DNA from: Candidatus Pacebacteria bacterium CG_4_9_14_0_2_um_filter_40_15
GTDB taxonomy: Bacteria > Patescibacteriota > Microgenomatia > UBA1400 > PJMF01
Length of the DNA stretch: 64,000 nucleotides
Assembly (NCBI GenBank): GCA_002788675.1
Contig: PFRS01000001.1
Coordinates: forward strand, 234,706-298,705
Direction: 5' to 3'
Shown here piece by piece: positions 3,461 through 63,285 of this stretch. A program made the position numbers and the translations under genes. Every line of letters begins with the position of its first letter. Within the stretch, counting starts at the first letter, position 1. The notes beneath the pieces are model-generated. The model was not told where the DNA came from. It did no database searches and saw only the letters and a list, made by a program, of their open reading frames with translations.

Positions 3461-3483
3461 TTCTATTTTGATAGAAAACGGAA

Positions 3484-3512
3484 AAGCGCCAGGCAGAATG
3501 CCTGGCGCTTTT
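3484..3512. terminator. Bidirectional intrinsic terminator hairpin between convergent genes
   Basis: aagcgccaggc-agaa-tgcctggcgctt followed by TTTTTATTT on plus; palindromic GC-rich stem. Confidence 0.6.
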
Positions 3513-3567: not shown

Positions 3568-4827
3568 CTAAAGCTCATGAAGTAGTGCGCTGGTGAGCTC
3601 TGGAAGCCCAATTCCGGTTACACCACTAAATAAATGAACAACTATGCCCTTCTTCTTGAAAAGCTTTACAATTTCTTTTTGAAGGTCTTCGGAATACAGA
3701 TCGATTTTGTTCACACTCACTAAATTTTTCTTATCAAATTGCTTTGGATTATGCGTCGTCAATTCTTTTACAAGACTTTGATACTGATTCCACAAAAGTT
3801 GAGCTTTATCCTTATCTGAACTTGCCGTGTCATAAATTACCGACTCATCTAGAGAAAGAACATATAATAATGCTTTTGTATTCTCGATATGACGTAGAAA
3901 ATCGTAACCAAGTCCCTTGCCTTCACTGGCACCTTCAATAAGCCCAGGAATATCGGCAATAACGATCTCTCGATTACTCTCTTGTGTTTGAAGCACACCT
4001 AGGTGAGGTTCGAGTGTGGTAAACGGATAGCTAGCGATTTTTGGTCGAGCTTTGGTCACAATTGAAAGCAAAGTACTCTTACCAGCATTTGGAAATCCAA
4101 CTAATCCCACGTCAGCTAAGAGTTTAAGCTCAAGCAAAACTAAACGCTTTTCACCTTCGGTTCCGTACTCTGCTACAAGAGGTGTCGTAAGTGAGGCACT
4201 CTTAAAACGGTCATTACCTCTACCTCCAAAGCCACCCTGACAGACAACAACTTCTTGACCATGTTCTAAAATAGTAATTAATTCATGTTTGGGAATAGTT
4301 TCATCATTAAGGAGTTTGCTTGGCTGATACTCAATAAAAGCATCAAAACCATCTTCGATATATGAATCTGTTACATCAATCGACGCAATTGGTGAACACA
4401 CAGGTGTTAACTCCTGTGGCTCTGGTCTTTGACCTTCTTGCTCCAATTGATACTTCTGATGAACAATTTCTACCCACTTTAAGAGCTGGTCTGTGCCGTA
4501 CTTCGTTCTTCTCTTACGAGCTATCTTGTTCTCAGCAACGATAAGGATTTTTGTTCCAATTGGAACTTCAAGAACGATACTGGAACCCTTTTTTCCGTAT
4601 TTATTTTTATCGCCACCAAGTTGACCAATCTCTGCTTGGTATGAAACCTGACCTACAAACTCTTTCAAAGTCGAAATATTTTTATTTCCACGAAGAATCA
4701 CTGAACCACCATTACCTCCATCGCCCCCATCTGGGCCACCTTTTTGGACATACTTTTCTCTTCTAAATGACACCCGACCATTTCCACCGTCACCAGCTAT
4801 AAGGAGCAATTTTACTAAATCTATCAT
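3568..4827 (-). CDS. obg: GTPase Obg
   Basis: N-terminal Gly-rich Obg fold (AGDGGNGRVSFRREKYVQKGGPDGGDGGNGGSV); G1 motif GFPNAGKSTLLS; DIPGLIEGA switch. Confidence 0.85.
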   Translation of the reverse strand: MIDLVKLLLIAGDGGNGRVSFRREKYVQKGGPDGGDGGNGGSVILRGNKNISTLKEFVGQVSYQAEIGQLGGDKNKYGKKGSSIVLEVPIGTKILIVAENKIARKRRTKYGTDQLLKWVEIVHQKYQLEQEGQRPEPQELTPVCSPIASIDVTDSYIEDGFDAFIEYQPSKLLNDETIPKHELITILEHGQEVVVCQGGFGGRGNDRFKSASLTTPLVAEYGTEGEKRLVLLELKLLADVGLVGFPNAGKSTLLSIVTKARPKIASYPFTTLEPHLGVLQTQESNREIVIADIPGLIEGASEGKGLGYDFLRHIENTKALLYVLSLDESVIYDTASSDKDKAQLLWNQYQSLVKELTTHNPKQFDKKNLVSVNKIDLYSEDLQKEIVKLFKKKGIVVHLFSGVTGIGLPELTSALLHEL

Positions 4828-7589: not shown

Positions 7590-8378
7590 TTATTCGAGTA
7601 CTTTTTGAGTATTTGTTGTGGGATCAATAAGTCGTGCATACCTAAAGTGACGAATTGGTGATTGTAGATATTTACAGGTGTACAAGATTAAATCGGCGTT
7701 ATAATCTGTAATCTCGTCACCCTCTTCACCTGAATAGATCTCGTATTCCCACTTTCGATGATCAACAATTATCTCTACTCTGTCACCGGGCTGTGTGTCT
7801 GGAAGTAAGTAAAATGAATTGTACTTCCAATAATCTGTTTGCCACCACCACTGCCATCCAAATCGATGGGCAGCAACTATCATAGGCAATCCTGTACCAT
7901 CCCCTGGTTTACCAAAGTCTGGCACCCACCAGACACCCTTTTCTAGGGCTTCTTCTGGCGTAGCTGTTGGTCTGAGTTGCGTATGCACACCAATAAGTGG
8001 AATAGAAATCCAATTGCCATCTGGCAATGTTTCATCATAATCAGGCTGGTACTGATATTCTTCTTTGTTCTCAACCGTCTGTTCTGTAGTGTACTCTCCT
8101 CCATACAGAGAAACTACCTCTGGTGGCTCAAGGGTCACTATATCAGCAGGAAAAAAGAAATAATATACAGCAGGAACAACTAAAATAGCAGCAATAAGGA
8201 CACTCAGGCCAATCAGTCCAGACAAGGCAACATTTATTACTGAAATAAGCCAAATAGGTAGTTTGTTTGTCTTTTTCTCGATTTTTCTGGCAGAAGAGAT
8301 AATAGAACCAGTCAACGCAGCCCGAGTTCGTGGAAATGTCGTTGAAAAAAAGCCAGATTTTGATTGGACAGTGAGCAT
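7590..8378 (-). CDS. Sortase-family transpeptidase (membrane anchored)
   Basis: N-terminal TM; LILYTCKY matches the sortase TLxTC catalytic-Cys motif; His-containing VVAAHRFGW segment upstream. Confidence 0.5.
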   Translation of the reverse strand: MLTVQSKSGFFSTTFPRTRAALTGSIISSARKIEKKTNKLPIWLISVINVALSGLIGLSVLIAAILVVPAVYYFFFPADIVTLEPPEVVSLYGGEYTTEQTVENKEEYQYQPDYDETLPDGNWISIPLIGVHTQLRPTATPEEALEKGVWWVPDFGKPGDGTGLPMIVAAHRFGWQWWWQTDYWKYNSFYLLPDTQPGDRVEIIVDHRKWEYEIYSGEEGDEITDYNADLILYTCKYLQSPIRHFRYARLIDPTTNTQKVLE

Positions 8379-8478
8379 AGCTCTCTCAAGTATACAATAT
8401 TATTATAGTCATTAATTATAGCATTTTTTGCTTGGAAAAGCAATGTTATGGGATAATATGGTCGAAATATCAAATAAG

Positions 8479-9584: not shown

Positions 9585-12017
9585 GTGCGACTCTGGTATA
9601 CTAATAGTATGGCAACGCCTCACGTATTACTCGAGCTCAGAACCGGTCGCGACAGTGCACACACACCAGAAGCATCTGTGCAATTATTTTCTGCACTTCC
9701 AGAACTCCATAACGAATGGTGGAGACGACTTGTCGGCCAAAATGAGCACCTGAGTGTTGAAATCATCACTGAAAATCAACAAATCTACTTTCAAATTTAT
9801 ACACCGCTCCGCCTCATGGAATACATAAAAGGCACTATAGCTGCCAGTTATCCAGGAGTAATGATGGCTGAGCTTAAGCGAGACATGATTGAGGCTCTCG
9901 ATAAACCTGAAACCTACTCCCAAGAGCAAAGCAGCTTTATTAGTATTGGTGACATTGCGCTTAAACGTGCAGAGTATTTACCCCTAAAAACGTATCAGGA
10001 TTTCAAAGACCTTGATCCACTCGCACCCCTTTTATCTACCCTTTCAAAACTCGATGCACTCGATAGAGTCGCTATTCAGTTCTGCATTACTCTCGACAGT
10101 GAAGAGTGGAAAAACCAAGGTCAACGCCTGATTGAAACCAATAAAAGTAGCGATTTGCTTAATGAAGTCATCACTGGCAAGCACCCTAAAAAAGCCTTAA
10201 TTGAGAAAAAAATTAAACCTTCAGCGCTGAAAGTTGCTATTAGAATGGCAGTCTCGGCACACACTAATGAGCGGAGCCAATTGCTTTTAGAAACAGTTGC
10301 CTCCTCTTTTGGAACAGTTACCGAAAGTGAAGGAAATAGTTTAGTCCTCAGAAAGATTTACTTCTGGAAAGAACAGTATCTCTCAATGATGCAGAAACGT
10401 TCGTTCCGTCGAACACGCTCGATGCACCTTTCTATCGATGAACTAGCCAGTATTCTCCACCTGCCAAGTAGCAGCCTCGAACCAATTCAAAACATCTCAT
10501 GGGGTAAGAATTTAATGGGTGAACCTCCTGAAAACCTACCGATTGTTACTCGAGAAATGCCGATTGAGCAGAAAAAAGAAATCAATCCTTTTGCAAAAAC
10601 ACTCTATAAGAACCAAGAAGCTGTGTATGGTCTTAAACGTGAAGACCGCCGTCGCCACATGTACGTGATTGGTAAAACTGGTACCGGTAAATCTACTCTC
10701 TTGGCTAATATGGCCATAAATGACCTCAAAAATGATGAAGGACTTTGTGTGATTGATCCACATGGTGACCTAGTTGAAACACTTCTTAACTACATCCCAT
10801 CTCGAAGAATCAATGACGTTATCTACTTTGACCCAGCCGATCCAGAACGAACAGTTCAGCTCAATCTCTTTGAAGGTGAAAATGTAGCTCACCGAGAACT
10901 CATCGCTTCAGGAATTGTCTCTGTCTTCCAAAAACTCTATGCATACTCCTGGGGACCACGACTTGAGTACATTTTGCGCAACGCCCTGCTCACCCTACTT
11001 AAGAGTGAAACGGCTCGCCTCTCCGACATTATCGACTTACTTACCAATAAAAAGTTTAGAGATAGCCTAGTTGAGGAACTCGATGACCCAGTCCTTAAAA
11101 ACTTCTGGCTCTATGAGTTCAACAAGCTGCAGGATCGCCAGCGAACAGAAGCCATTGCCCCAATTTTAAACAAAGTCGGACAGTTTGTGTCCTCTCCGCT
11201 CATTCGTGACGTAGTTAACTCAAGAAAAAGTTCATTCAGTATCGAAGAAGCCATGGATCAAGGCAAAATTGTCTTGGTTAATCTTTCCCAAGGAAAGCTT
11301 GGTGAAGACAACGCGACCCTTCTTGGAGCAATGCTGATTACTAAAATTCAGCTCGCAGCCATGTCTCGTGTGCATGTAGATGAAGAACACCGACGTGACT
11401 TCTATCTGTATGTCGACGAATTCCAGAATTTTGCTACAGAATCTTTCAACAAAATTCTCTCTGAGGCACGTAAATACCGTCTCAACCTGATCTTGGCTAA
11501 CCAGTACATTGCTCAGATTCCTGAAGAAGTTCAGAAGGCCATCTTTGGTAACTGTGGAAGCATTGTTAGTTTCGTGATGGGTGCCGAAGACGCCGCCGCT
11601 TTCGAGAGAGAATACGGCGAACGCTACACTAAAGAAGACTTGGTGTCACTGAGTAAACACCAGATTATCAATAAACTTTCAATCGATAACATGATCTCTC
11701 GCCCTTTCCCAGCATTTACCCTGGGGCCAGCTAAAAGTACAAATAAAAATCGAGGTAAAGTTATCAAGGTAAGTAGCGAGCGCTATGCAAAGCGCAAGAA
11801 ATCACTCGATCTTGCTGCCGAATTCCAAGCAAATAAAGAACGTATGGATCAGACTGATGAAGAAAAACAGGCTCAGATTGCTGAGGAGCAGCGTCGTGCA
11901 GAAATCAATAAAAAAGCTCGAGAAGCAGAAGGCTCACAAAAGCCTAAAAACAACAAACAAAACCAAGGGAAAAATAGTAACCAAAATCACAACAATCAAC
12001 AGAATAAGAAGAACTAA
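9585..12017 (+). CDS. TraD/VirD4/TrwB-family (type IV coupling protein-like) AAA ATPase, no N-terminal TM, K/N/Q-rich C-terminal tail
   Basis: Walker A VIGKTGTGKSTLLANM; DPHGDLVE; Walker B-like YLYVDEFQNF; C-terminal TraG-D_C-like block (ILANQYIAQIPEEVQKAIFGNCGSIVSF). Likely true start ATG at 9609 (MATPHV), with TATACT just upstream. Confidence 0.6.
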   Translation: MRLWYTNSMATPHVLLELRTGRDSAHTPEASVQLFSALPELHNEWWRRLVGQNEHLSVEIITENQQIYFQIYTPLRLMEYIKGTIAASYPGVMMAELKRDMIEALDKPETYSQEQSSFISIGDIALKRAEYLPLKTYQDFKDLDPLAPLLSTLSKLDALDRVAIQFCITLDSEEWKNQGQRLIETNKSSDLLNEVITGKHPKKALIEKKIKPSALKVAIRMAVSAHTNERSQLLLETVASSFGTVTESEGNSLVLRKIYFWKEQYLSMMQKRSFRRTRSMHLSIDELASILHLPSSSLEPIQNISWGKNLMGEPPENLPIVTREMPIEQKKEINPFAKTLYKNQEAVYGLKREDRRRHMYVIGKTGTGKSTLLANMAINDLKNDEGLCVIDPHGDLVETLLNYIPSRRINDVIYFDPADPERTVQLNLFEGENVAHRELIASGIVSVFQKLYAYSWGPRLEYILRNALLTLLKSETARLSDIIDLLTNKKFRDSLVEELDDPVLKNFWLYEFNKLQDRQRTEAIAPILNKVGQFVSSPLIRDVVNSRKSSFSIEEAMDQGKIVLVNLSQGKLGEDNATLLGAMLITKIQLAAMSRVHVDEEHRRDFYLYVDEFQNFATESFNKILSEARKYRLNLILANQYIAQIPEEVQKAIFGNCGSIVSFVMGAEDAAAFEREYGERYTKEDLVSLSKHQIINKLSIDNMISRPFPAFTLGPAKSTNKNRGKVIKVSSERYAKRKKSLDLAAEFQANKERMDQTDEEKQAQIAEEQRRAEINKKAREAEGSQKPKNNKQNQGKNSNQNHNNQQNKKN

Positions 12018-15347: not shown

Positions 15348-15460
15348 GAATGCATCATAGCATTAGTGGAAGAACTGTACAAAAGCATAATTGGGCAAAA
15401 AAAAGCCTCCGATCTATGACCGGAGGCTTTACTAAAGTTAAAAATACATTTTGTTGATTT

Positions 15461-16048
15461 TTACCGAACGCCTACAACGAGCCATGCGGCTAACAACATG
15501 GACACGATTGTCCAAATGGCCGCGGCTTCTGTATGGCCGGCACGGAAATTTTCAACATAAGTCGTAATGGATTTCATTCCCAACTGGAAGCGACTAAAAA
15601 CTGCTGTGAACAGCAACGCCCAAAGGTAAAACTGGGGAAGCCGAACAAGCAAGTTTGCAGCGTAGTTTGGTAACACCGTGTAGGGTGTCATGAAGACCAC
15701 CCAACCAATGGCCAGAACTGCGAAGGCATTCACCCACGCCACTGAATCATTGGAGTCATCAGCGAGCTGTTGCTCTTTCAACAACTTACTGTTATTTGCA
15801 AACCCAATAAGGGAAGCAGTAACAGGATTGACGAAAAAACGAACAACTGCCAACAAAAGCACCACCTTGGCCAAGCCTTCCAAAATGGGAAAGCCACATG
15901 CCCAGGTGATGTCGAACATGGTAACCGGACTGGTTGCGCACGAGCTTACTGAGCGTAAAGGTAAATACTGCTGTGCGAACAACCCAACTGCAATTAAAGC
16001 CAGTGCGATCAAGGCACTTAAAAGAAGTGGTTTACGTGTACCGTTCAT
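15461..16048 (-). CDS. Integral membrane protein (hypothetical), GC-rich island
   Basis: 5-6 predicted TM helices; noticeably higher GC than flanking genes. Confidence 0.4.
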   Translation of the reverse strand: MNGTRKPLLLSALIALALIAVGLFAQQYLPLRSVSSCATSPVTMFDITWACGFPILEGLAKVVLLLAVVRFFVNPVTASLIGFANNSKLLKEQQLADDSNDSVAWVNAFAVLAIGWVVFMTPYTVLPNYAANLLVRLPQFYLWALLFTAVFSRFQLGMKSITTYVENFRAGHTEAAAIWTIVSMLLAAWLVVGVR

Positions 16049-16122
16049 GGTTATTCCTTTTTATGGTAGTGCGCTGGCGAAGCCAGCGCACTACATAATT
16101 CAACAGATTATAAAAAACTAAA

Positions 16123-17007
16123 CTAACCAGCAGCTGCCGCAATCTCTGCCATGATGTCGACATCAACGCCATTGATGTCATACTGCGCCATAGCCATGTC
16201 AGCAAAACTCACAGGTGTTTGCGCATCCAAATCCTGGTCAACAACCTTGTCTGCGCGATATTCAGCACGCGCACTGGTCATTTGACCTTGCAAATCGGAC
16301 ATGAAGTTGTTGACACCATTGTCATCAGCAGTTTGGTTGTGAGCTTTATCAGCTAACGCCAATGCCTGCTTATGAGTTTCAATTGCCAGCATAATCCCAG
16401 GGGCCTTCACTTCAATCTGACGCAGGACTTCTTCAGCCTGCTTCAGATTTGCGAGCGAAACCTGGTAGCTTTCTTCTAAGACGGCATACGTATCTTCATA
16501 CATCGCCAATTCACCAGAAGACAAAGCTTTGATTTCTTGAGCACCCTGAGCAATCTGTGCATCCAACTTGGTGGCCTCGCCATTCATCCACGCCGGAAAA
16601 ACAGACTTTTGAACAGTGATGTTAACTTGAGCTGCCAAAGCAACCAGTTCATCACTTGGAACAATCCGACCTGAATCGTTGGGCACACCGGCGGCTTCTT
16701 CACGAAGCAGCTGGGAAACCTTGTGTAACCGGCCAGCAAATACAATCATTTTTTCGCGCTGTCCCGCGAGCCGTTCCATTGGTTCCAAGGCCTGTGTGAG
16801 TGGGTCCTTGAGTGCCAACATCTGGGCGCGGATTTGACGTGCCGTCAAACGCATATCAGTGACCTGCTTTGCAGCACTGTCGCGTAAAATCGATAACACG
16901 TCTTGATCATTCAGAAATGCTTGAGCCAGCTTGTTACGTCCGTTCTCAAACATTTTTTCGACCATAGCGGAAAAGGAAATTTGTTGTACTTTTAATTGAG
17001 TAGCCAT
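16123..17007 (-). CDS. Coiled-coil stress-protein-like (PspA/IM30- or TelA-like) protein
   Basis: All-helical, no TM; N-terminal amphipathic SFSAMVEKMFENGRNKLAQAFL resembles the PspA/Vipp1 start. Assignment tentative. Confidence 0.3.
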   Translation of the reverse strand: MATQLKVQQISFSAMVEKMFENGRNKLAQAFLNDQDVLSILRDSAAKQVTDMRLTARQIRAQMLALKDPLTQALEPMERLAGQREKMIVFAGRLHKVSQLLREEAAGVPNDSGRIVPSDELVALAAQVNITVQKSVFPAWMNGEATKLDAQIAQGAQEIKALSSGELAMYEDTYAVLEESYQVSLANLKQAEEVLRQIEVKAPGIMLAIETHKQALALADKAHNQTADDNGVNNFMSDLQGQMTSARAEYRADKVVDQDLDAQTPVSFADMAMAQYDINGVDVDIMAEIAAAAG

Positions 17008-17079
17008 TGTTAATCTCTAAGCTCCTTGCTTATTTTGAATTGAAATAAAAGGTTAATAAAATTTGTCTTGGATATAAAA

Positions 17080-17901
17080 CTAAAACAACTGTTTAATATC
17101 CATTTCGGGATCAAACGGAGTGCAACGGAATAATCCGCCACGACCCCTTGCTTCATCCCGTGCGTCAATGTAAAACAGCCAATCTGTCCCTTCCATCTGA
17201 CGGGAAGTGACAAAAAATGTTCTATCGCCGTCGTATACAATACCATCAGTATTGCCTTCGACGTCAAAAAAGAACTTGCCAATATCATGAACTCGCCATT
17301 GTGTTCCCTGAGTTAAACCGCCGGGAAGAGAATAAACTATCTCTTTCCCATAAATGTTTTGCCCCAAGTTTTTGAACAACTTAGCTGGGCCAGGATCATT
17401 ATCATCGCCTTTATAAAAGTCAGCAAGTGATCCAAGGGTTGGAATCAGGGTTCCCTTCATCCAAACAAAATTACCTCCTTCAGCTGATGGAATCCGGAAG
17501 ATCCACTCATTACCTACCCAAACAGCCTTTGAAGGTCCTTCAGGTTTAGTAACCCAACGGCGCTCTCCAAACATTTCTTGAGTCTTTGGTGTTAATGTCA
17601 TTGAAGCAGTTACAACACTATCACCACCAGAAAAATCAGTGGTATAGGTAATAACATTGCCTGGTTCGACTACATCCATTTTCGCTACATTTGAGGCAGA
17701 GGCTGGCAACACATCTGTTCGTAGAACATTTACATCTTCAACATCTACCTCATCAGCAACCTTCATGCCCGAGATTCGAGCAATCAGGCGTTTCCCTTCA
17801 GGAGTTACCAGATAGCGCCGGCCGTAATAAAACAGGCCAGTGCAAGCGGCAACCAACAAAATGGAACCTAAAATCATGAGTAAACTTAAAAACGTGGACA
17901 T
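17080..17901 (-). CDS. Membrane-anchored hypothetical protein
   Basis: Single N-terminal TM (LLMILGSILLVAACTGLFYY) then a 240-aa domain with no known motif; 2-nt spacing to the upstream gene. Confidence 0.45.
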   Translation of the reverse strand: MSTFLSLLMILGSILLVAACTGLFYYGRRYLVTPEGKRLIARISGMKVADEVDVEDVNVLRTDVLPASASNVAKMDVVEPGNVITYTTDFSGGDSVVTASMTLTPKTQEMFGERRWVTKPEGPSKAVWVGNEWIFRIPSAEGGNFVWMKGTLIPTLGSLADFYKGDDNDPGPAKLFKNLGQNIYGKEIVYSLPGGLTQGTQWRVHDIGKFFFDVEGNTDGIVYDGDRTFFVTSRQMEGTDWLFYIDARDEARGRGGLFRCTPFDPEMDIKQLF

Positions 17902-17903
17902 AT

Positions 17904-19784
17904 CTAATAACCTCCGCCGTCATCATAGCCACCGCCCGATGACGAATTATATCCGCCACCATCGTTATAGCTACCAGAACTTGAACTGCTACTGGATCCA
18001 CTACTAAACCCGCCGCCATCATTACTTGAACAGCAACTTCCGCTGCTACTCGATGATGAGCTTTCGGCTGCTTGCCGGGCTGCTTCTTCAGCAGCTCGTT
18101 GAGCGGCCTCGCGGGCTCTTTCTTGGCGGTCCATCTCGTCATCATACGCTCGTTCTGCACGAGCGCCGGTGCCTTCAGCCGAATTGTACGACTGATCAGC
18201 TAAAGTACATGCGCTTTCATACTGATGAGAGTTTGCGGCATTGTTTGCCCGCGATAACAACTCAACAGCACTATTAAAGTCACTCCGGGCGCTACTACTG
18301 TAGCTCCCGTAGCTACTTACGCGTGAACTATTTGACGAAATTTCTGCCTCTGCTCTATCTTGTTTTCCTGGCCATGAAGACCGAAAACCTTCGAGAGAGT
18401 TTTTAAGAGATACTACCTGTCCACTTAGGTTACTTGCCTCTTGAAGATTGCTAATGCTTCCACCCATTTGGTTTTTTGCAGTCAAAAATTCTTGATTGCT
18501 CAAACTTTGTGAGGTGTTCGCATAGGCATCTTCAGCAAAACCAACCAAGCGCCAGGCTTCAGAAATATTGTTCTGTTTCCCGTTCCACGTTGAGGAGTTG
18601 TGGTATCTTTCGATAGTACTCCACGCACTCTCCGCAGTACGGATATCAGAAATGGCCGTTGAATGAACAGAAGAATATCGAGCCAACAGGTTGTTGGTCT
18701 CGATGTAGGCGTTGACTTGGGTGTTTGCGCTTGTCACAGACTGTTGTGCCTGCAACAAAGCAAGTTTTCCAGCTTCATACGAAGCCGGCCAATCAACTTT
18801 ACCATCAACAACAGAAACAACGAAAATATCTTTTGCAGCTTTCAAACTTTCTGCTGCATCTAATACCTGTTGCCGGGAAACACTTAGCGCGCCACTAAAG
18901 CCCCAATTGTACTGGGCATTGATGACGGATAGGCGGTCCCAAGCCGCGTTAATAGCGGCCTCTGCTTCTACGATTTTTGGTTCTGCGCCATCACGTGCCT
19001 CGACTTGGTAGTCAAGACCCGCAGTGACTTTGTGTTGGTGAACATTGATTTGATCAATGAGCACCTTTGCCCGGGTAATTTGCTCTTGTGCCGCTGTCGG
19101 GTTTCCCCGATGCGACAAATCATTCCAGTCTGGCATTAAACCAGACGCTGTGTTCATGTGCTGTTGCACACTAGACAGCTTTTGGGATGATTGTCGCAAC
19201 TCTTCTTGAAGAGGGGCCATGTATGTTTCTAACCATTCATGGGACTCTGCTCCAAAGCGAGTCTCTGCAACGTTTTGAGAACTAACCAGTTGTTCTACCA
19301 ATAAAGTGGCTTCTGCCTGATTTAATGACACCTGCTCACGCAAAGTAACATTGTAATCAAACAAGGTAATAGTGACATCAACAAACGCTTTGGCATTTTG
19401 AACCTCTACGATTGCTTGTTGATATCTCCTTACACGAGATGAAGGCCAACCACGGCCAGCATCTTGAAACGTCGAACGCGATGTTTCGAGTATAGCGTGC
19501 GCTTCAGCCAAATCTGACTGAAAACTTCGCCCATTACTAGTAATCGAAAAATCTTCAGAAAACCAGTTTTGTTCTTGGATTCTATCCTCAGCCTGTTGAA
19601 TTAAAACCTCAACTTGCCGAAGACCTTCTTCAGAGCTGTTTCTGTACGAGCGCAAAACCATGTTTGGCACGACAAAAAACAGAAATAAAGAGAATACCAA
19701 TAACCCACTGGAATACTGAATCCCCAAAAGGGGATTGCGCCCTAAGTTCCGAAAAAAGCGATCAATACTTCTTTTCAGATCCAT
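17904..19784 (-). CDS. Membrane-anchored long coiled-coil protein with Ser/Gly/Tyr-rich C-terminal tail
   Basis: N-terminal TM, about 500 aa coiled coil (EzrA-like architecture), C-terminal SSSSSSSGSCCSSNDGGGFSSGSSSSSSSGSYNDGGGYNSSSGGGYDDGGGY. Confidence 0.5.
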   Translation of the reverse strand: MDLKRSIDRFFRNLGRNPLLGIQYSSGLLVFSLFLFFVVPNMVLRSYRNSSEEGLRQVEVLIQQAEDRIQEQNWFSEDFSITSNGRSFQSDLAEAHAILETSRSTFQDAGRGWPSSRVRRYQQAIVEVQNAKAFVDVTITLFDYNVTLREQVSLNQAEATLLVEQLVSSQNVAETRFGAESHEWLETYMAPLQEELRQSSQKLSSVQQHMNTASGLMPDWNDLSHRGNPTAAQEQITRAKVLIDQINVHQHKVTAGLDYQVEARDGAEPKIVEAEAAINAAWDRLSVINAQYNWGFSGALSVSRQQVLDAAESLKAAKDIFVVSVVDGKVDWPASYEAGKLALLQAQQSVTSANTQVNAYIETNNLLARYSSVHSTAISDIRTAESAWSTIERYHNSSTWNGKQNNISEAWRLVGFAEDAYANTSQSLSNQEFLTAKNQMGGSISNLQEASNLSGQVVSLKNSLEGFRSSWPGKQDRAEAEISSNSSRVSSYGSYSSSARSDFNSAVELLSRANNAANSHQYESACTLADQSYNSAEGTGARAERAYDDEMDRQERAREAAQRAAEEAARQAAESSSSSSSGSCCSSNDGGGFSSGSSSSSSSGSYNDGGGYNSSSGGGYDDGGGY

Positions 19785-20111
19785 AGCGTCTCCTATAAAT
19801 GAAACTGTGTAATTAGATTAAATTATTTATTAACCTCCCTTTTTGTTTTTTTTCATTAAGTCAGCTGATTTTCTATCACTTTATACAGAAATGAGAAAAA
19901 AACAGCTGACTCCAAAAAAACAAATATTTGTATTTTTAACTTGTTAAAGACACCCATCCTCCGCATTAAAAAAAGCCACGAGGGCTTAGCAATGCATTGA
20001 ATGAGGTGATTGCATTTGCACAAAAAAATGAGCAAACACAATAGTCTGGGGATTGTATCAAAAAAAGCCTAGTTTGTCAACTATAGGACTTAGTATGAAG
20101 GTGTACCGAGA

Positions 20112-24158: not shown

Positions 24159-24710
24159 TTATTTCTTGAATGTGTTGCTAATATTTTCCTTTGCCTTGCG
24201 GAAAAGGAAAACAGCACCAACATACAAGGACCATTCTAAAACAAATACTAAAATGCCCCAGAGAAGACCCCCTCCTATAGCAAATCCTGTGGGCAAAATA
24301 AAACTTGTTACAACAGCGTTTAGAAGCGTGTTGTAGTTGGGATTATTTTGTTGGGCCTGATGGTGCAGTTCCAACACAAATCCAAAAGAAGAAAGGACTG
24401 CAGCATACACAAGCGCCCCTGAAATAAACTCCGCATCGGGGTTGCCAGTTGCAGCTAGCCCAAACAAATACAGGAAACCTGCAGCAATTATGGCGAAGAT
24501 AACGCCTTTAAAAGCTTTAAAGTTCCACAGTACAAAGGCTGGGACAGCAATCATGCCAATCCCAAAAACTAATAAAACATTCCAGTTAGTAAAGATATAC
24601 TCACTAAAAGGAATATCTCCATAATACCAAGCTGCGCCAAGCACTGCTAATACGAGCAGGCCAATCACAATTGGCAGAATTAAGAACTGTCTTTGATTTT
24701 CATTCAACAT
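24159..24710 (-). CDS. Integral membrane protein (hypothetical)
   Basis: 5-6 TM helices. Start set to the ATG preceded by a strong SD (AAGAGGAGGTATCCC-ATG, MLNENQRQ) rather than the longer ORF-track start at 24776. Confidence 0.5.
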   Translation of the reverse strand: MLNENQRQFLILPIVIGLLVLAVLGAAWYYGDIPFSEYIFTNWNVLLVFGIGMIAVPAFVLWNFKAFKGVIFAIIAAGFLYLFGLAATGNPDAEFISGALVYAAVLSSFGFVLELHHQAQQNNPNYNTLLNAVVTSFILPTGFAIGGGLLWGILVFVLEWSLYVGAVFLFRKAKENISNTFKK

Positions 24711-24874
24711 GGGATACCTCCTCTTAGTTGAGTTATGTGGATGGTTAATTTTAAGGTTGAATCCCCTCCCCCACACAAGACGTGCGGCTTCAGAGATAAT
24801 ACATTATTATCCCATAACATGGACTAAAATACTAGACGTAATACTATCAAACCACAACACACTATTGACAAAAT

Positions 24875-28344: not shown

Positions 28345-29019
28345 ATGGGAAATAAAAAAATTGTATTTCACACAAAAGCTCGTGACAAAAAAACTAAGAT
28401 GAACTCATTACGTGTCGGGGGATTTATCCCTGGAAACGTATATGGATTAAGTAAAGAATCAGAGTCTATATTCTGCGAGGCAAACGCTTTTAAAAAGCTG
28501 TATGAAGAAGTAGGGGACACGGGACTTATTTACGTTAAAATTGATGATGCTAAAGAACAACCAGTACTTATTGATGAAGTTTCAGAAATGAGTGTCGGGA
28601 ACAGAGTTCTTCATGTTGCCTTCAAACGTGTTAACTTGAACGTGGCTGTATCAGCAGACGTGCCAATCGAACTTGTTGGTGAAAATGAAGTCAGAGATAC
28701 CATCGTAACTCAAGTTAAACAAGATGTTGAAGTTGAAGCACTTCCACAGAACTTGCCAGAAAAATTCGAAATCGATATCAGTACCCTTACTGAGGTTGGT
28801 CAAACCATTACCTTAGCTGATCTTAAGTTTGATACTTCAAAGATCACTCTTGTTCTTGGTGAAGACGTCGATCCAGAGTCTGAAACAATCGTTGTGCTCC
28901 AACATGTTGCAGTACAAGAAGAGGAAGAGACTGAAGAAACAGCAGCTAGTGAAGAGGCTACAACTGAAAAGGCAGCTGAATCAACCGAAGAAGCTAAATC
29001 AGAAGAAGCTTCAGAATAA
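28345..29019 (+). CDS. rplY: 50S ribosomal protein L25 / general stress protein Ctc form with acidic C-terminal tail
   Basis: N-terminal L25 fold (KARDKKTKMNSLRVGGFIPGNVYG...); acidic EEEETEE tail; SD AAGGAAAG 7 nt upstream. Confidence 0.7.
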   Translation: MGNKKIVFHTKARDKKTKMNSLRVGGFIPGNVYGLSKESESIFCEANAFKKLYEEVGDTGLIYVKIDDAKEQPVLIDEVSEMSVGNRVLHVAFKRVNLNVAVSADVPIELVGENEVRDTIVTQVKQDVEVEALPQNLPEKFEIDISTLTEVGQTITLADLKFDTSKITLVLGEDVDPESETIVVLQHVAVQEEEETEETAASEEATTEKAAESTEEAKSEEASE

Positions 29020-34870: not shown

Positions 34871-35980
34871 TTATCCATTTACCTTAAAAGGCATAATCAC
34901 ATATTCAGCTTCTGGAACATCGGTAACTTTACAAAGTACTGGTTTAAGACTTTCACTCATTCCGAACCAAATTGAGTCACTTTTTGTTGCCTTAAGAATA
35001 TCTTGTACATATTTTGCATTAAATGCAATTTCGAGTGGTTCGCCGGTAATCTTAACTCCTGGAATTTCGCCCGAGTAGGTTCCAAGAGAAGGAGAGGACG
35101 CTGAAATAGTAACTTTGTCGGCTTCAATTGAAAATTTAATAATATTTGAAATATCTCGCGCAAAAATGAGCGCTCGTTTAATATTATCGTCAAGTTCACC
35201 AGAAGAAAAAGTTACTTCAGTAGTGAAAACACTGGGGATTATTTTCTGGTAGGGGGGATATTCACCTTCAATCAGGCGCATATAAATTTCTACATCTCCA
35301 CTTGCAAAATACACTTGCTTTAACTCTTGAGAAACCACAAATGAAACAGTCTTTTCTGAAACCTGTTGCACAATTCTATTCACTTCGTGAAGCGCCTTAG
35401 ACTGTAAAAGTAGGGTTGAGGTCGCTCTACCTACTGCATTAGCGACTTTGTAGGTGCTGAGTCTAAAACCGTCCGTTGTAACGGTGAGTAGCCCGTTTTC
35501 GGTAGGTTCAAAGAGTATTGAAGTAAGCACTGGTCTAGCCTGGTCTGTCGAAGCAGAAAAGCCAACAAATTGTTCAATAGACTGTAATTGCTCCGTATCA
35601 AAGGTGTAGGTTTCACCTTCAACTTGAGGAAATTGAGGATATTCATCAGCTGCTTGGCATTGAAGCTTGGTTTTTGAATGTTCGGAAAGGATATTGAGTG
35701 TACCTTCTATAAACTCAAGTGTTAACTTGCCGTTTCCCATAGAAGAAATTAATTCTTTAAATTGTTTTCCTGGAATAACAATCGTTCCTTCTGTTTCAAC
35801 AGAAGCTTGTAAATGAACACGAACTCCAAAATAAAGATCAGTTGCAGAAATAACACAGCCACTAGTTGTTGCTTCAAATAAAACTGAAGAGAGAACTGGC
35901 AATTGAGGATTAGATGGAATAGCCTTTGAAAGATACGATAACCCCTTATTTAAATTTTCTTGCAGTATATATGTTTTCAT
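34871..35980 (-). CDS. dnaN: DNA polymerase III beta sliding clamp
   Basis: 369 aa; three-domain beta clamp; N-terminal MKTYILQENLNKGLSYLSKAIPSNPQLPVLSSVLFEA. Confidence 0.85.
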   Translation of the reverse strand: MKTYILQENLNKGLSYLSKAIPSNPQLPVLSSVLFEATTSGCVISATDLYFGVRVHLQASVETEGTIVIPGKQFKELISSMGNGKLTLEFIEGTLNILSEHSKTKLQCQAADEYPQFPQVEGETYTFDTEQLQSIEQFVGFSASTDQARPVLTSILFEPTENGLLTVTTDGFRLSTYKVANAVGRATSTLLLQSKALHEVNRIVQQVSEKTVSFVVSQELKQVYFASGDVEIYMRLIEGEYPPYQKIIPSVFTTEVTFSSGELDDNIKRALIFARDISNIIKFSIEADKVTISASSPSLGTYSGEIPGVKITGEPLEIAFNAKYVQDILKATKSDSIWFGMSESLKPVLCKVTDVPEAEYVIMPFKVNG

Positions 35981-41638: not shown

Positions 41639-42832
41639 TCAACTCAAACTTCGAACTTCAATTGGTTGTACCAAGTCTCCGGTTAATTGAATACTCATTG
41701 GTTCAAAAGAGAAGCCATCTTTGTCGACTGTTATGGTGTAATTCCCGTTTGCTAACGGCGTGGTCACAAAGAATTGACCGAGCGCATTTGTTTTAACAGC
41801 TCTGGCAACTGTGCCATCTTGTTGCAAAATTTCGATTATGGCATTAACAATGAGCTCATTATTTGGAGAAAGCACCATTCCAACGAGTTTATTTGGTTCA
41901 CTTGGAGATTCTGGGAAAGGTAGATTTGTGTTGAATTCAGCCTGGTCAGCCATCGTTTGATCATTTTTTGTGCCGTATGCTTCATTACCCATAAAGGTCA
42001 TTGAATCTTCAGCTGGTGTAGAAGTAGTGTCTGTTTCAGCCTCCACAGCTTGTTTGTTTGGATCAACAACAGCAATGAGTTGCGTTTCGGGAATGGCGAT
42101 TTCTTGAGCTACATCTTTGGCATCTTGTTGTTGTTTTGCAAGGACATTGCGTTGCGTGTACATATCAGTTAGGGCTGAGTCTGAGCTGGGAACTGCTCCA
42201 ACAGCATGAGTAGCATTTTGCTGAGGTAGTGCTTGTCCTTCAGCTGAGTACACAACATTTTCTTGGTGTAATGGTCGTAAGTTACGCACGCGCACTCCAA
42301 GTTTGGGCTTGGTGATTCTTCTTGATTTAGCTGTAGTTGGATCTGACTTAACGCTTGAAAAAGTACCCAGAATTGCATTCATTCGATCGATTTCATCTGA
42401 ATCAAATGAGTAAGGGTCTTCAACATTGGGAACAGATGTTAAGTATTCACGGATACGTTCTTTTTTAACTGGGCCTAGATCAACGTCCATCTCGGTGCGA
42501 GGACTAGACATATTTGGTGTAAAACTAAAAACTTCCGGAACATGAGCCTCTCGTTTCCAAAAGAATTGAGTTGGTTTATACATAACTCGAATAAAAGTGA
42601 GAATCCAGTGATCAAGTGGCCGTTCTTCAATGGGTAAAAATGCGATTAGTCCACCTGAAACCCCGGAAAAGAGCATAAGGGGATATTTAATAGCCGCGGG
42701 AAGATTTGTAGAGTAAAAAAGAGCAGCAAGACCTACACCCAGAGCAATTTCAACAAATTGCTTCAGAGTCATGCTTCCAATAATATGGAATTTATAACCG
42801 GTGATGTCTTGAGGAATTGGATGTTCTCTCAT
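41639..42832 (-). CDS. PrgI/VirB3-like two-TM N-terminal module fused to a large C-terminal extension with carboxypeptidase-regulatory-like beta-sandwich
   Basis: HPIPQDITGYKFHIIGSMTLKQFVEIALGVGLAALFY plus a second TM resembles PrgI-family (Gram-positive VirB3 analogue) openers; C-terminus NGNYTITVDKDGFSFEPMSIQLTG is CarboxypepD_reg-like. Confidence 0.45.
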   Translation of the reverse strand: MREHPIPQDITGYKFHIIGSMTLKQFVEIALGVGLAALFYSTNLPAAIKYPLMLFSGVSGGLIAFLPIEERPLDHWILTFIRVMYKPTQFFWKREAHVPEVFSFTPNMSSPRTEMDVDLGPVKKERIREYLTSVPNVEDPYSFDSDEIDRMNAILGTFSSVKSDPTTAKSRRITKPKLGVRVRNLRPLHQENVVYSAEGQALPQQNATHAVGAVPSSDSALTDMYTQRNVLAKQQQDAKDVAQEIAIPETQLIAVVDPNKQAVEAETDTTSTPAEDSMTFMGNEAYGTKNDQTMADQAEFNTNLPFPESPSEPNKLVGMVLSPNNELIVNAIIEILQQDGTVARAVKTNALGQFFVTTPLANGNYTITVDKDGFSFEPMSIQLTGDLVQPIEVRSLS

Positions 42833-60173: not shown

Positions 60174-60608
60174 TTATAAACCTGAATCAGAAGATGGAAT
60201 TCTGAACTGTGTGATGAGACTAATTCCGGTGAAAGAAGCAATCAAGTTAAGGATAATAAATGCACTCAGGGCTACCACCATACCAATAACAGCATAAGTC
60301 ATTGAACCTTTAGCAGATTGGAGTTTTCCAGTGTCTCCTCCAGAAAGCATCCAAGTGATTGCTCCAACGACAAACATTACAAATCCAGCGAGTCCTATGA
60401 TTGTAATAATTACTGTAAAAACATTTGCAATTAAGCACTCAAGACCTTGTAGTGTAGCTACATCCTGTTGACCTTCAGCTGAACCAACACAGACGCCGCT
60501 CCAGGCACGAGTTTGTGCTTGTGCAGGAGTAGCAGCCAAAAAATATACAGCTAGCATTGTAGCGGAGACATTTAGTTGTCGAATGATTTTTTTTATTGCT
60601 GGTTTCAT
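60174..60608 (-). CDS. VirB2/TrbC-like two-helix mini-protein (candidate T4SS pilin), paralog 1
   Basis: Signal peptide (AATPAQAQT); helix 1; loop WMLSGGDTGKLQSAKGSM; helix 2. Confidence 0.5.
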   Translation of the reverse strand: MKPAIKKIIRQLNVSATMLAVYFLAATPAQAQTRAWSGVCVGSAEGQQDVATLQGLECLIANVFTVIITIIGLAGFVMFVVGAITWMLSGGDTGKLQSAKGSMTYAVIGMVVALSAFIILNLIASFTGISLITQFRIPSSDSGL

Positions 60609-60655
60609 AGTAAAACTCTGTAGTTTTTATGTATGGTTACAGTATAGCAAACCTA

Positions 60656-61198
60656 CTAAGATAATGTTTTGGTGTTTTCAAGGACTTCTTGTAATGACTC
60701 AAATCCAAGAAAGTTCAAACCTAAAGTAAGAATAGCAAAACTTGAAGCTAAAATAATCAAGCCAATTATTGCTGCTATCAGACGTTGTCGTGCAGAATCA
60801 ACTTTGCCTTTATCTCCACCAGATGTGATCCAATAAAAGCCAGCGAGGATAAGTTGAAGAAAGACTAATAATGCTCCAAGAAGCATTACTAAACTTAAAA
60901 TCGCGTTAAAAAGAGTACCTACATTCGTTGCAAATCCTGTTGGAATGGTAATCCGAACATCTTTAAGAAGGTCATGTTTTATTTGGGCAGAAGTAGTACT
61001 GATTTTTTGAGCAGAGTTGGTCGCCGTTGTTGTTAAGTAGAGCGTTTCCCCGTCACGGTGTGTGGTAACGTCGTTACCTGTACCAGCAGCAAGAACAGCT
61101 CTGGGTTGGCAGAAGAAAAAAACAGTCATGAGTAAGAGTATAAAAAGTAATGTTTTTTTCATAACTAGTATTATAGTATCTATATCAAAATATATCAA
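60656..61198 (-). CDS. VirB2/TrbC-like mini-protein, paralog 2
   Basis: Signal peptide; loop YWITSGGDKGKVDSARQRLIAAIIGLIIL between two hydrophobic helices. Confidence 0.5.
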   Translation of the reverse strand: MIYFDIDTIILVMKKTLLFILLLMTVFFFCQPRAVLAAGTGNDVTTHRDGETLYLTTTATNSAQKISTTSAQIKHDLLKDVRITIPTGFATNVGTLFNAILSLVMLLGALLVFLQLILAGFYWITSGGDKGKVDSARQRLIAAIIGLIILASSFAILTLGLNFLGFESLQEVLENTKTLS

Positions 61199-61242
61199 AC
61201 ACGCTTGGCGTGTTTTTTAGCTTAAAGAAGCTAACGGCTGTA

Positions 61243-61272
61243 CCAAAAGCGCCAGGCAATTTGCCTGGCGCT
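61243..61272 (-). terminator. Intrinsic terminator after paralog 3 (same stem sequence as the 3484 terminator)
   Basis: aagcgccaggc-aattt-gcctggcgctt; on minus strand followed by TTTTGG. A second hairpin, aacacgc-ttgg-gcgtgtt plus T6, lies at 61218-61243. Confidence 0.5.
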
Positions 61273-61292
61273 TTCTAGTTTCTATTTTTAGA

Positions 61293-61700
61293 TTAGTTAC
61301 TAATTGATTTAACGTTACTGAATGCATCTCCAAGGTTTTCGAAGCCGATGAAGTTAAGAGCAATCAAGAGAATTGCGTATGATGCAGCGAGAACGATAAG
61401 TCCAAGAACAGCTGCAGTAATTTTGTTACGAGCAGATTCGGTCTTGCCTTTGTCTCCACCAGAAGTAATCCATTCGATGCCACCCCAGATGAGGTACATG
61501 AATACTAAAAGTGCTGCGAGAACCATGACGAATGAAAGCACACCATTGATAAGTCCACCAATGCTGGTTGCAAATCCTGGTCCTGGAGTAATTTCTTCTC
61601 CAGTATCAATACCTTGGGCAAGTACTGGTGAAACAGTAGCCAAGTATGCTGTTCCTGTTGCTACGGCTGTAGCGAACGATTTTTTGAGTGAGTCTGTCAT
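61293..61700 (-). CDS. VirB2/TrbC-like mini-protein, paralog 3 (terminator-flanked, candidate major subunit)
   Basis: Signal peptide (VSPVLAQG); loop EWITSGGDKGKTESARNKITAAVLGLIVL; followed by tandem terminator hairpins. Confidence 0.5.
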   Translation of the reverse strand: MTDSLKKSFATAVATGTAYLATVSPVLAQGIDTGEEITPGPGFATSIGGLINGVLSFVMVLAALLVFMYLIWGGIEWITSGGDKGKTESARNKITAAVLGLIVLAASYAILLIALNFIGFENLGDAFSNVKSISN

Positions 61701-61790
61701 GTGTCTCCTTATTTTTTTTACGGTTACAAACTTATATGTAATTATACCTATGTTCCAGACTAATAGTCAAGCATGGTTATCGAGGCGTCT

Positions 61791-62366
61791 TTAGCACTTA
61801 CTAAAGTCGTACCCTGAAATCTGATACTGAGCGCCATCTTGACAGAAGCATGGATCATAGTGGTTATAACTTAGGTGACTATCTGAGCCAAAGCATTGAA
61901 CCATTGCGATTCCTTGAGAACAATATCCAGCAGAACCACCAGCACTTACGGTTTGTTCCGTTACGGTGCAAGAAGCTTGGCCACCACCACCTCCAGCTCC
62001 ACCACCACCATTTGCAGTAGGTGATCCTAAAAAGGTAAACACTTGAATTCCTAAGAATTGTTGCACAATCATAAAGAGGGCAGTTACAGCTGAAAGAACA
62101 ATTATACCTGTGACTGCACCGGTAATTCTCTGGCGAGCTTTTTCAAGCTTGCTTTTGTCCCCTGCAGATGTGATCCATTCGATGCCACCCCAAATGAGGT
62201 AAAAGAAGACCAGTAGAGCAGCAATAAGCATGATGAAAGACATGATGCTTCCTACGAGTGGGCCAAAACCTGAAGCATGATTTGCTGGATCTAAAGAAGC
62301 TGTTCCTGGGACTGCATTGTCAACAGCTTTTTGTGCAAAATCGAGTTGTACTTGTGCGAGTTTCAT
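61791..62366 (-). CDS. VirB2/TrbC-like mini-protein, paralog 4 with Gly-rich/Cys C-terminal extension
   Basis: Loop EWITSAGDKSKLEKARQRITGAVTGIIVL; C-terminus GGGGAGGGGGQASC followed by a Cys-containing tail. Confidence 0.5.
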   Translation of the reverse strand: MKLAQVQLDFAQKAVDNAVPGTASLDPANHASGFGPLVGSIMSFIMLIAALLVFFYLIWGGIEWITSAGDKSKLEKARQRITGAVTGIIVLSAVTALFMIVQQFLGIQVFTFLGSPTANGGGGAGGGGGQASCTVTEQTVSAGGSAGYCSQGIAMVQCFGSDSHLSYNHYDPCFCQDGAQYQISGYDFSKC

Positions 62367-62386
62367 ATGTTCTTTCCAAGTGTGAT

Positions 62387-62854
62387 TTAGTGTCCTGCTC
62401 CTGGCCAGCCACCATCTGGTGCGCCGGTGCTATTTGGTGTTGGGAACGAGAGATTCAAGATTGAGAAGCTTTCACCAAAGAGCGCGGTACTTATGTAGCC
62501 AAGAATAACGAAACTTGAAACAAGGATGAGTAAACCAACAACAGCATGCATCATTCTGAGGCGGGCTTTCTCTAGTTTGCCTGAATCGCCACCTGCTGTA
62601 ATCCACTCAATAGAACCCCAAATAAAGTAGAAAAGAACGAGTAGACCACCAATATTTATGGCTGTTTCCCAGAGAGAAACCATGTAGCCGACAAAAATTG
62701 AGCCATCAGTGGCAGTTTCTGATGATTCTTGTGTTCCTCCTAAATCAGGAGTAAGGACAGGGTTGTTAATTGAGGCAAGAGCTTTTGTTGGTGAAAATGC
62801 AAACAGTGATACTGTCAGTACTAGAACGAAAAGGTAGATTAATTTCTTTTTCAT
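62387..62854 (-). CDS. VirB2/TrbC-like mini-protein, paralog 5
   Basis: Signal peptide (PTKALAS); loop EWITAGGDSGKLEKARLRMMHAVVGLLIL. Confidence 0.5.
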   Translation of the reverse strand: MKKKLIYLFVLVLTVSLFAFSPTKALASINNPVLTPDLGGTQESSETATDGSIFVGYMVSLWETAINIGGLLVLFYFIWGSIEWITAGGDSGKLEKARLRMMHAVVGLLILVSSFVILGYISTALFGESFSILNLSFPTPNSTGAPDGGWPGAGH

Positions 62855-62858
62855 AGTG

Positions 62859-63227
62859 TTATGGTGCCGGTGCTAAATCTATTAACTTTGATGCTGGTTC
62901 AAGAAGATTGAAGCCGATGATTGAGCCAATAAGTCCAATTATTCCATATGCTGCGACAACAATAACAAGACCAAGTACTCCGTGGAGCATGCGCTCACGA
63001 GCAGTTTGCAATTTTCCACTGTCACCACCACTCGTTACCCAAGAGAGTGCTGCAATAAGGAAATAGACTATAAAGAAGATAGATGCAAAAACAGTTAACA
63101 CACCAATGGAATTAGAAATAAACAACTCTAAATTTGATAGCGCACCTTCATTTGTTTCGATGCCTTCAGTAAAGGGAGCGTCTTGAGTGTTGAAGCCTCC
63201 TCCAAATTGTGCGATGAGTGTTAACAT
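62859..63227 (-). CDS. VirB2/TrbC-like mini-protein, paralog 6
   Basis: Loop SWVTSGGDSGKLQTARERMLHGVLGLVIVV; 4-nt gap to the next gene. Confidence 0.5.
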   Translation of the reverse strand: MLTLIAQFGGGFNTQDAPFTEGIETNEGALSNLELFISNSIGVLTVFASIFFIVYFLIAALSWVTSGGDSGKLQTARERMLHGVLGLVIVVAAYGIIGLIGSIIGFNLLEPASKLIDLAPAP

Positions 63228-63285
63228 AGTTCTATTATATCCTATTTGTATTTTTTTTGTACTCTATTTCTTCAAGAATGGTTTA

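Follow-up and report, generated by a model that had tools for sequence, protein, structure and literature searches.

A conserved four-gene operon with no recognized protein family, bracketed by a covarying inverted repeat, in a GC-rich patch of a Candidatus Pacebacteria genome

Does a patch of raised guanine-cytosine (GC) content in a bacterial genome mark DNA of recent foreign origin, or can it belong to a gene set that the host lineage has long carried? The question is raised by positions 15450-19800 of a 64,000-nucleotide stretch, here called the window, from the genome of Candidatus Pacebacteria bacterium CG_4_9_14_0_2_um_filter_40_15 (contig PFRS01000001.1). Bacteria of the candidate phyla radiation (CPR) are ultra-small, and most have never been grown in culture. 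Little is known about the biology of their envelope, and many of their genes are annotated as hypothetical only. A preliminary description of the window had seen in this patch a discrete, co-oriented module of one coiled-coil protein and membrane proteins with a compositional and codon signature of its own, and this description stands. Four tightly packed open reading frames (ORFs) of 195, 294, 273, and 626 amino acids (aa) occupy 15461-19784 on the minus strand, with a gap of 2 nucleotides (nt) between the genes for the 626- and 273-aa proteins, and the 50-nt stretch that had been quoted as an example is located at 16688-16737. The same description took the module for a likely horizontal acquisition and its coiled-coil protein for a relative of PspA or TelA. 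The module is instead very probably a conserved orphan operon that is neither a recent transfer nor a PspA/TelA system; as judged from sequence, the patch represents a single conserved transcription unit, stably positioned in the genomes of the window's clade, and not recent foreign DNA.

The compositional contrast exists, at about half the size estimated by eye (48-50% against 38-40%). The GC content of 15450-19800 is 45.9%, compared with 40.2% for the rest of the window and 40.6% for the entire window; the patch ranks third of 597 windows of equal size, about 2.5 standard deviations above their mean, and all top-ranked windows overlap it. The reported shift toward G/C-ending codons is likewise real, though uneven among the four genes and chiefly an exchange of A-ending for G-ending codons (G at third positions 0.222 vs. 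0.136). GC at third codon positions (GC3) is 0.404, 0.365, 0.468, and 0.520 in the module genes, against 0.309 ± 0.040 in the 39 other ORFs, corresponding to z-scores of 2.3, 1.4, 3.9, and 5.2. The codons AGA, ATA, CTA, GGA, and TCA are avoided, while CGG, TTG, CTG, and GGC are favoured. The amino acid composition of the products, which are richer in Ala and Arg and poorer in Lys and Ile, explains only about one third of the GC3 excess.

Relatives of the module were retrieved through the 294- and 273-aa proteins. As loci L011 and L015 are near-identical and count as one lineage, eight lineages are available including the window. The same four genes occur in the same order in L007, L010, L011/L015, L013, L017, L019, and L020, and across the eight lineages, which range from Pacebacteria-like to Taylorbacteria, the products keep sizes of about 620, 272, 260-295, and 200 aa in fixed order. 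L007 represents a sister species, in which RadA is 93% and Rho 85% identical to the proteins of the window's organism, and its module proteins are 65-79% identical to those of the window. There, the module lies between the same flanking genes and shows a larger GC excess than in the window (49.7% vs. 41.8% for the flanks). Module and flank values are 45.9% and 40.2% in the window, 51.1% and 42.6% in L011, 55.8% and 49.0% in L013, 56.1% and 46.4% in L017, and 53.8% and 45.1% in L019 (coding sequence only in the last). The module is thus 4-10 GC points higher at all loci with comparable flanking genes, at host GC contents of 42-52%.

These comparisons bear directly on the proposal that the module is an island recently acquired from a GC-richer donor, whose composition has yet to drift. 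Such an origin would account for the highest-GC 4.35-kb stretch of the window, for codon usage distinct from that of its surroundings (CGG, TTG, and CTG up; AGA and ATA down), and for proteins that are orphans, and a composition deviating from that of the host, with GC3 z-scores of up to 5.2, is what a recent island should show. However, L007 carries orthologues with a GC excess of the same sign at the same locus in a close relative, which the preliminary description had itself named as the observation that would speak against acquisition. In every gene, the window and L007 agree at only 32-49% of four-fold degenerate sites, where chance is estimated at about 0.3, and yet GC at these sites (GC4) in the module exceeds that of most flanking genes in both. 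Since synonymous sites have largely turned over while the GC4 excess has been kept, the excess must have been maintained; a leftover foreign signal would have decayed. The excess also recurs in all six loci with comparable flanks and scales with host GC. The hallmarks of mobility expected of a recent island do not appear either: the 64-kb window holds no tRNA gene, none of the flanking genes scanned encodes an integrase domain, and the borders of the module carry no direct repeat. Recent acquisition is therefore very improbable indeed.

What maintains the excess can be read in several ways. It may reflect selection acting on translation or on the mRNA, biased gene conversion at a locus that recombines frequently, or repeated exchange of the module as a cassette. 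A codon signature of high expression was considered and set aside: the only ribosomal-protein gene of the window, that of L25, has a GC3 of 0.27. As this is one gene, the argument against a generic expression effect is a weak one.

Repeated exchange leads to a second view of the module, as an old cassette transferred sporadically among CPR lineages, whose GC content is kept up by re-arrival from GC-richer genomes or by gene conversion and whose bracketing repeat, described below, is a relic of mobility or a recognition site. Pacebacteria belong to the Microgenomates and Taylorbacteria to the Parcubacteria, different major groups of the CPR. The module is very sparse, with 34 relatives of the 294-aa protein in an exhaustive hidden Markov model search of 1.84 billion representatives, one module locus in the JGI metagenomes, and one in 185,579 GTDB species representatives (a first GTDB scan was empty); yet the carriers with an organism name are one Candidatus Pacebacteria metagenome-assembled genome (MAG), that of the window, and one Candidatus Taylorbacteria MAG, that of L020. 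The module occupies at least five different genomic contexts, the flanks in L011, L013, L017, L019, and L020 being different from those of the window, although rearranged flanks are expected anyway at such distances and synteny between the window and L007 is stable. GC excess is found wherever flanks are comparable, fragments holding only the module reach 62% GC (L014), and in the vicinity of the module L017 and L019 have tRNA genes and L011 and L017 a gene for a tyrosine recombinase. However, neither a transposase nor a target-site duplication was observed, and a scan of viral contigs returned no copy of the module. The promoter and the first leader element, which lie outside the repeats, are conserved together with the module, so the repeats are not the ends of the conserved unit. 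An old cassette keeps a minor but real share of the probability.

The operon is bracketed by an inverted repeat with, in the window, a perfect 14-nt core (AAGTTAAAAATACA). This operon-spanning repeat and the leader architecture are newly found here. The repeat is bipartite, includes a TTAA element, and brackets the module in all eight lineages, with cores perfect over 11-16 nt, an upstream arm 95-122 nt after a promoter-like site, and a downstream arm 10-190 nt after the last stop codon. Its core motif drifts among lineages, in both arms together (AAGTTAAAAATAC, TTAAGAATAC, GTTTTAAGAATATG, AACTTCAAGAAT, and AACTTCAAGAGA). In five lineages, none of 100 shuffles matches the perfect core of 12-16 nt; in two others, 1-2 of 100 do. 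The same motif is present in L013 and L020; in L013, where an unrelated 12-nt match scores equally well, the bracketing one was picked by the shared motif. When the arms are put in register by hand on their shared centre, 74 of the 77 cells in the core columns form pairs, and six to nine columns have changed on both sides (7 lineages). The covariation score is 0.350, compared with 0.171 ± 0.031 for shuffles (0/500) and at most 0.175 for slid partners.

Complementary segments that covary, as expected if the 5′- and 3′-ends of an mRNA pair, are found in all eight lineages, and end-to-end pairing of the mRNA is the favoured role of the repeat, with somewhat less than an even chance. It would have both arms transcribed, and the terminator lies beyond the downstream arm in the window, L007, and L010, which places both arms within the predicted transcript there. 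RNAduplex applied to whole leader and trailer regions is uninformative, with z-scores from -3.3 to +0.4. Ribosomal RNA operons contain processing stems that are cut by RNase III. Pairing between the 5′- and 3′-untranslated regions of an mRNA has been described for icaR of Staphylococcus aureus (PMC3868564) and hbs of Bacillus subtilis (PMC5737220). As in these three cases, the complementary segments lie near the predicted ends of the transcript, and a duplex could control decay, processing, or translation. The module differs from these cases in that the duplex would span a four-gene mRNA of 4.6 kb and would leave the ribosome-binding site (RBS) uninvolved, in that it has no G-U pairs, and in that transcription of the arms is inferred.

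At the level of DNA, other roles come into view. The repeat may be a DNA-level site of some kind, whereas terminal repeats of a mobile element are unlikely given the conserved promoter and first leader element outside them. A more specific proposal is a phase-variable invertible operon, in which the arms are recombination sites and inversion of the 4.5-kb segment cuts the genes off from a fixed promoter, giving ON/OFF control of a surface structure. In its favour, the repeats enclose the genes but not the promoter, each lineage has cores that are identical and purely Watson-Crick, as if homogenised by recombination, the repeat is bipartite with its TTAA element, and Xer-type recombinase genes adjoin the module in L011 and L017. 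In this layout of short inverted repeats flanking a multi-kb coding segment with the promoter outside, the locus resembles the G segment of phage Mu and systems of the Hin/Gin family. Unlike these, it presents no inverted isoform in the assemblies examined: the segment has a single orientation relative to the promoter in all eight lineages and in the six places listed among 23 contigs of the window's species. There is also no adjacent recombinase gene in the window, L007, L013, or L019, and the antisense strand holds no alternative gene set, only one set being encoded. An invertible operon is distinctly improbable.

Transcription of the unit would start at a sigma-70-type promoter-like site upstream of the gene for the 626-aa protein (Table 1). 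This site is conserved in L007 and L010, and strong equivalents lie 274-325 nt before the ATG in L007, L010, L011, L015, L017, and L019. In the leader that follows, a terminator-like hairpin comes first, then a conserved TTAACA element, a lineage-variable hairpin, and an AAGGAGG motif. The terminator-like hairpin may end transcription of the upstream gene for a sugar-binding protein, act as an attenuator of the module, or do both; in L019 and L013 a different, GC-rich element of two hairpins takes its place. Seen from the promoter, 19965-20050 on the minus strand holds this hairpin and its T-run about 60-70 nt downstream, a possible leader RNA of about 80 nt or an attenuator. In L013, an extra 69-aa hydrophobic ORF (418-627) lies between the upstream repeat arm and the gene for the 626-aa homologue, preceded by the AAGGAGG motif. 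The corresponding motif of the window has no ORF behind it and may be the remnant of a lost leader ORF. A search of Rfam with the module, the leaders, and five related loci found no family in the leaders.

The soluble product of the operon is the 294-aa protein, in which hydropathy detects no transmembrane (TM) segment. An alignment of 27 family members served for an AlphaFold model and for profile searches. The model has a mean predicted local distance difference test score (pLDDT) of 77, above 85 in the core, and places helices at residues 34-66, 76-105, 138-164, and 166-223; they are followed by an acidic, probably disordered linker with a D-x-D-L-D-A motif (residues 223-261, pLDDT below 50) and a conserved C-terminal helix (...IMAEIAAAAG). 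Proteins of the window's clade carry a 30-residue insert at 106-137 that is missing in shorter members. Structural searches with the model return only antiparallel, generic coiled-coil matches.

Could this protein nonetheless be a highly diverged member of the PspA/Vipp1 (IM30)/ESCRT-III group or of the TelA family, polymerising on the membrane in an envelope-stress module whose three membrane proteins anchor or regulate it? Like the PspA group, it is soluble, all-helical, and coiled-coil-like, with a flexible C-terminal part made of a low-confidence acidic linker and a conserved helix, and its gene is grouped with genes for membrane proteins, like that of PspA with those of PspB and PspC or that of LiaH with that of LiaI. 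The sole stretch aligned by hhalign, in a match without significance, corresponds in its N-terminal location. The resemblance proposed earlier does not extend to sequence, profile, or profile-profile comparison. None of the 27 members matches Snf7, nor PF04012 or PF05816 at E ≤ 1, and the window's own protein gives no PF04012 match at that threshold. A profile search of the PDB at E ≤ 10 retrieves no PspA, Vipp1, or TelA chain despite the presence of PspA and Vipp1 chains in the library, and hhalign of the 27-sequence alignment against E. coli PspA, whose sequence was checked against PDB 4WHE, gives 0.7% probability. Five members have hydrophobic moments between 0.26 and 0.55 in the N-terminal window, an inconsistent signal for the amphipathic helix typical of that group, and the partners PspB/C and LiaI/F are unrelated to those encoded in the module. 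TelA, a toxic anion resistance protein (PF05816), is also a helical cytoplasmic protein, but no TelA chain appeared in PDB sequence or fold searches. No papers on PspA or ESCRT-III in the CPR were found in the literature. A diverged module of this kind is improbable; a purely functional analogy to envelope-stress or membrane-remodelling systems is conceivable.

The other three products are predicted membrane proteins: hydropathy gives the 626- and 273-aa proteins a single N-terminal TM segment each, and the 195-aa protein five hydrophobic segments. In the 626-aa protein, a modest positive-inside bias around the TM segment suggests a cytoplasmic N-terminus. The roughly 520 residues after it contain conserved W-P, Y-G-S-Y, and G-T-G motifs and match no family, and segment-against-segment hhalign comparisons find no significant internal repeats (at most 30% probability). 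A charged helix then leads into a Ser run, an SCC motif (five of seven homologues), and D-GGG-[YFW] or GGDGGDW repeats, with Y or W as the final residue in every case. The Ser/Gly/Tyr-rich tail was correctly quoted at the outset, its last 55 residues comprising 23 S, 15 G, 4 Y, and 4 D, and this unusual tail is conserved in homologues. The 273-aa protein has a TM helix followed by basic residues and a beta-rich domain (about 83-272) for which no structural match was found; a search of the viral fold database BFVD with its model gave nothing at E ≤ 0.001. A lipobox-like VAAC sequence had made it a candidate lipoprotein, which was rejected given that the Cys is not conserved in homologues. The 195-aa protein carries one invariant and one largely conserved Cys in its first loop and a conserved G-N-[DNE]-[ST] motif.

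None of the four proteins or their families matches Pfam, NCBIfam, PHROGs, or PADLOC, and PDB sequence and profile searches with the module proteins are empty. By these searches, all four are outside described families. The module as a whole likewise has no match in the libraries searched, and nothing relevant was found in the literature on related topics, undetected homology not being proof of absence.

Two known types of membrane protein share features with the 626-aa protein. EzrA has a similar gross layout of an N-terminal TM anchor followed by about 550 aa, and the module lies near divIC and xer genes in two lineages. However, seven members of the 626-aa family have no match to the EzrA family PF06160 at E ≤ 1, internal repeats are not significant, the large domain of EzrA is cytoplasmic whereas that of the 626-aa protein is predicted outside by charge bias, and EzrA lacks a Ser/Gly/aromatic tail. 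Membrane proteins with TPM domains (YgcG-like) or DUF2207 have Gly-rich C-terminal tails that end in an aromatic residue. The tail of the 626-aa protein is alike in being a low-complexity G/S-rich extension of a membrane-anchored protein with an aromatic end, and differs in its D-GGG-[YFW] repeats and the SCC motif of most homologues; TPM, LemA, and DUF2207 domains were not detected in the module proteins.

From these parts a mechanism can be proposed in which two bitopic proteins, a polytopic one, and a soluble coiled-coil protein assemble into a membrane complex that is not enzymatic. The 626-aa protein would be a bitopic protein with a long N-terminally anchored domain and its Ser/Gly/aromatic tail on the outer side, a topology given weakly by the positive-inside rule. 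The 273-aa protein would be bitopic with a new beta-rich domain, probably cytoplasmic, the 195-aa protein would cross the membrane five times, and the coiled-coil hairpin of the 294-aa protein would dock at the cytoplasmic side. The absence of a detectable catalytic domain and this list of parts make a structural or scaffolding role in or on the cytoplasmic membrane the most likely one, as a tentative proposal well short of even. The operon is preceded by a strong sigma-70-type promoter-like site and by a leader of about 270 nt with predicted hairpins; the repeat would pair the ends of the mRNA and thereby control its stability or processing, and selection, biased gene conversion, or repeated exchange would maintain the GC excess. 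Taken as a whole, the combination of a conserved transcription unit, a membrane scaffold, and paired mRNA ends is the best explanation and has slightly better than an even chance.

Several points weigh against this explanation. The scaffolding function is drawn from protein architecture alone, and the topology follows from a weak charge bias. The window contains eight pairs of perfect intergenic inverted repeats of at least 12 nt, so that a 14-nt repeat is not unique there and the weight of the bracketing one rests on its conservation across lineages. Among the 74 paired core cells there are no G-U pairs, which is mildly unexpected for an RNA helix and suits a DNA-level site. In L011, the downstream arm comes after a GC-rich hairpin and hence may not always be transcribed. 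Finally, the GC excess is compatible with several causes, a generic high-expression signature being weakly disfavoured by the single L25 gene.

An orphan operon in the CPR would not by itself surprise specialists; what is unusual here is that a surviving GC excess coincides with a covarying repeat that spans the operon and with a confident model whose fold is not a known one. The module offers a concrete target, namely four co-inherited proteins without a family, one confident model without a PDB match, and a conserved low-complexity tail. A synonymous GC excess that outlasts saturation means that the equation of a GC island with recent horizontal gene transfer can fail. If the repeat acts in RNA, it would constitute an unusually long-range 5′-3′ interaction in a bacterial polycistronic mRNA. 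The most far-reaching version, speculative and rather unlikely in its entirety, is an undescribed four-protein membrane machine of a few CPR lineages, with a new beta-rich fold, a surface-exposed helical protein with a sticky tail, an mRNA clamped by a 5′-3′ duplex (or a DNA segment that is flipped), and coding sequence held GC-rich against mutational bias. If true, ultra-small bacteria would possess a novel type of gene cassette, self-contained and autonomous in its composition.

Table 1. Genes and candidate regulatory features of the four-gene module, in window coordinates.
Feature	Position	Strand	Description
Gene 1, 626 aa	17904..19784	-	N-terminal TM 26-44, about 520 aa without family, charged helix, Ser-rich/D-GGG-aromatic tail
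Gene 2, 273 aa	17080..17901	-	N-terminal TM helix, basic residues, beta-rich domain about 83-272
Gene 3, 294 aa	16123..17007	-	Soluble, all-helical, coiled-coil
Gene 4, 195 aa	15461..16048	-	Polytopic membrane protein, five hydrophobic segments
Sigma-70-type promoter-like site	20052..20080	-	TTGACA-17-TACAAT with upstream TG, 11/12 matches, about 270 nt before first start codon
Terminator-like hairpin and T-run	19973..19987	-	Between promoter and upstream repeat arm; conserved in L007 and L010
Upstream repeat arm	19915..19942	-	Perfect core AAGTTAAAAATACA at 19929-19942; about 110 nt past promoter-like site, 144 nt before ATG
Leader hairpin	19846..19924	-	GTCAGCTG ... CAGCTGAC stem; hairpin at this position in each lineage, sequence different
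AGGGAGG/AAGGAGG motif	19834..19840	-	Conserved, about 50 nt ahead of ATG, distinct from the gene's own RBS
Downstream repeat arm	15435..15462	-	Perfect core 15435-15448, 13-26 nt past gene 4 stop codon
Intrinsic terminator-like hairpin	15402..15430	-	13-bp stem, 7 GC pairs, T-run; closes transcription unit; equivalents in L007 and L010

The exact module proteins are present in many assemblies, including NCBI GCA_002790935.1, under the name "hypothetical protein [Candidatus Pacebacteria bacterium]". On one side, the module is flanked in the window by genes for RadA, a lipoprotein, a cytidylyltransferase, and a 312-aa protein with a weak nucleotidyltransferase match, and on the other by those for the sugar-binding ATP-binding cassette (ABC) protein, a VanW-domain protein, and leucyl-tRNA synthetase (LeuRS). 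In two distant lineages, genes for a DivIC-like protein and an Xer-type tyrosine recombinase adjoin the module (L011, 9243-10677; L017, 2811-4185), a neighbourhood that may reflect a link to cell division or recombination or plain shared ancestral synteny. The tRNA genes of L017 (4190-4261) and L019 (13832-13904) lie about 1-1.5 kb from the module or nearer, and the start of a 23S rRNA gene is also found in L019 (14167-15372).

Elsewhere in the window, a type IV pilin-like protein with an N_methyl motif is encoded at 454-1167, the GTPase Obg at 3568-4827, ribosomal protein L25/TL5 at 28345-29019, and the beta clamp of DNA polymerase III at 34871-35980. An array of seven tandem paralogous small genes occupies 60174-63885 on the minus strand and matches the type IV secretion system (T4SS) pilin family PF18895 with E-values from 1e-9 to 5e-5; six of the seven reach the Pfam gathering score, the product of 62859-63227 falling slightly below it. 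Together with a PrgI-family protein with a CarboxypepD_reg domain (41639-42832) and a TraD/VirD4/TrwB-like coupling ATPase (DUF87 and TrwB_AAD_bind; 9585-12017), the array suggests a large T4SS-like system. The TraD-like gene has the top GC3 value outside the module (0.408, and 0.40 in L007). A link between the module and these genes was considered and set aside, as they are not next to the module in other lineages.

Further repeats occur in the intergenic regions of the window. A perfect 16-nt inverted repeat (ATGTTATGGGATAATA) is present at 8443-8458 and 24805-24820, 16 kb apart, each copy directly upstream of a minus-strand gene without assigned function (7590-8378 and 24159-24776). An identical GC-rich palindromic hairpin, AAAGCGCCAGGCA...TGCCTGGCGCTTTT, occurs at 3483-3512 and 61245-61274, 58 kb apart, and is probably a reused terminator.

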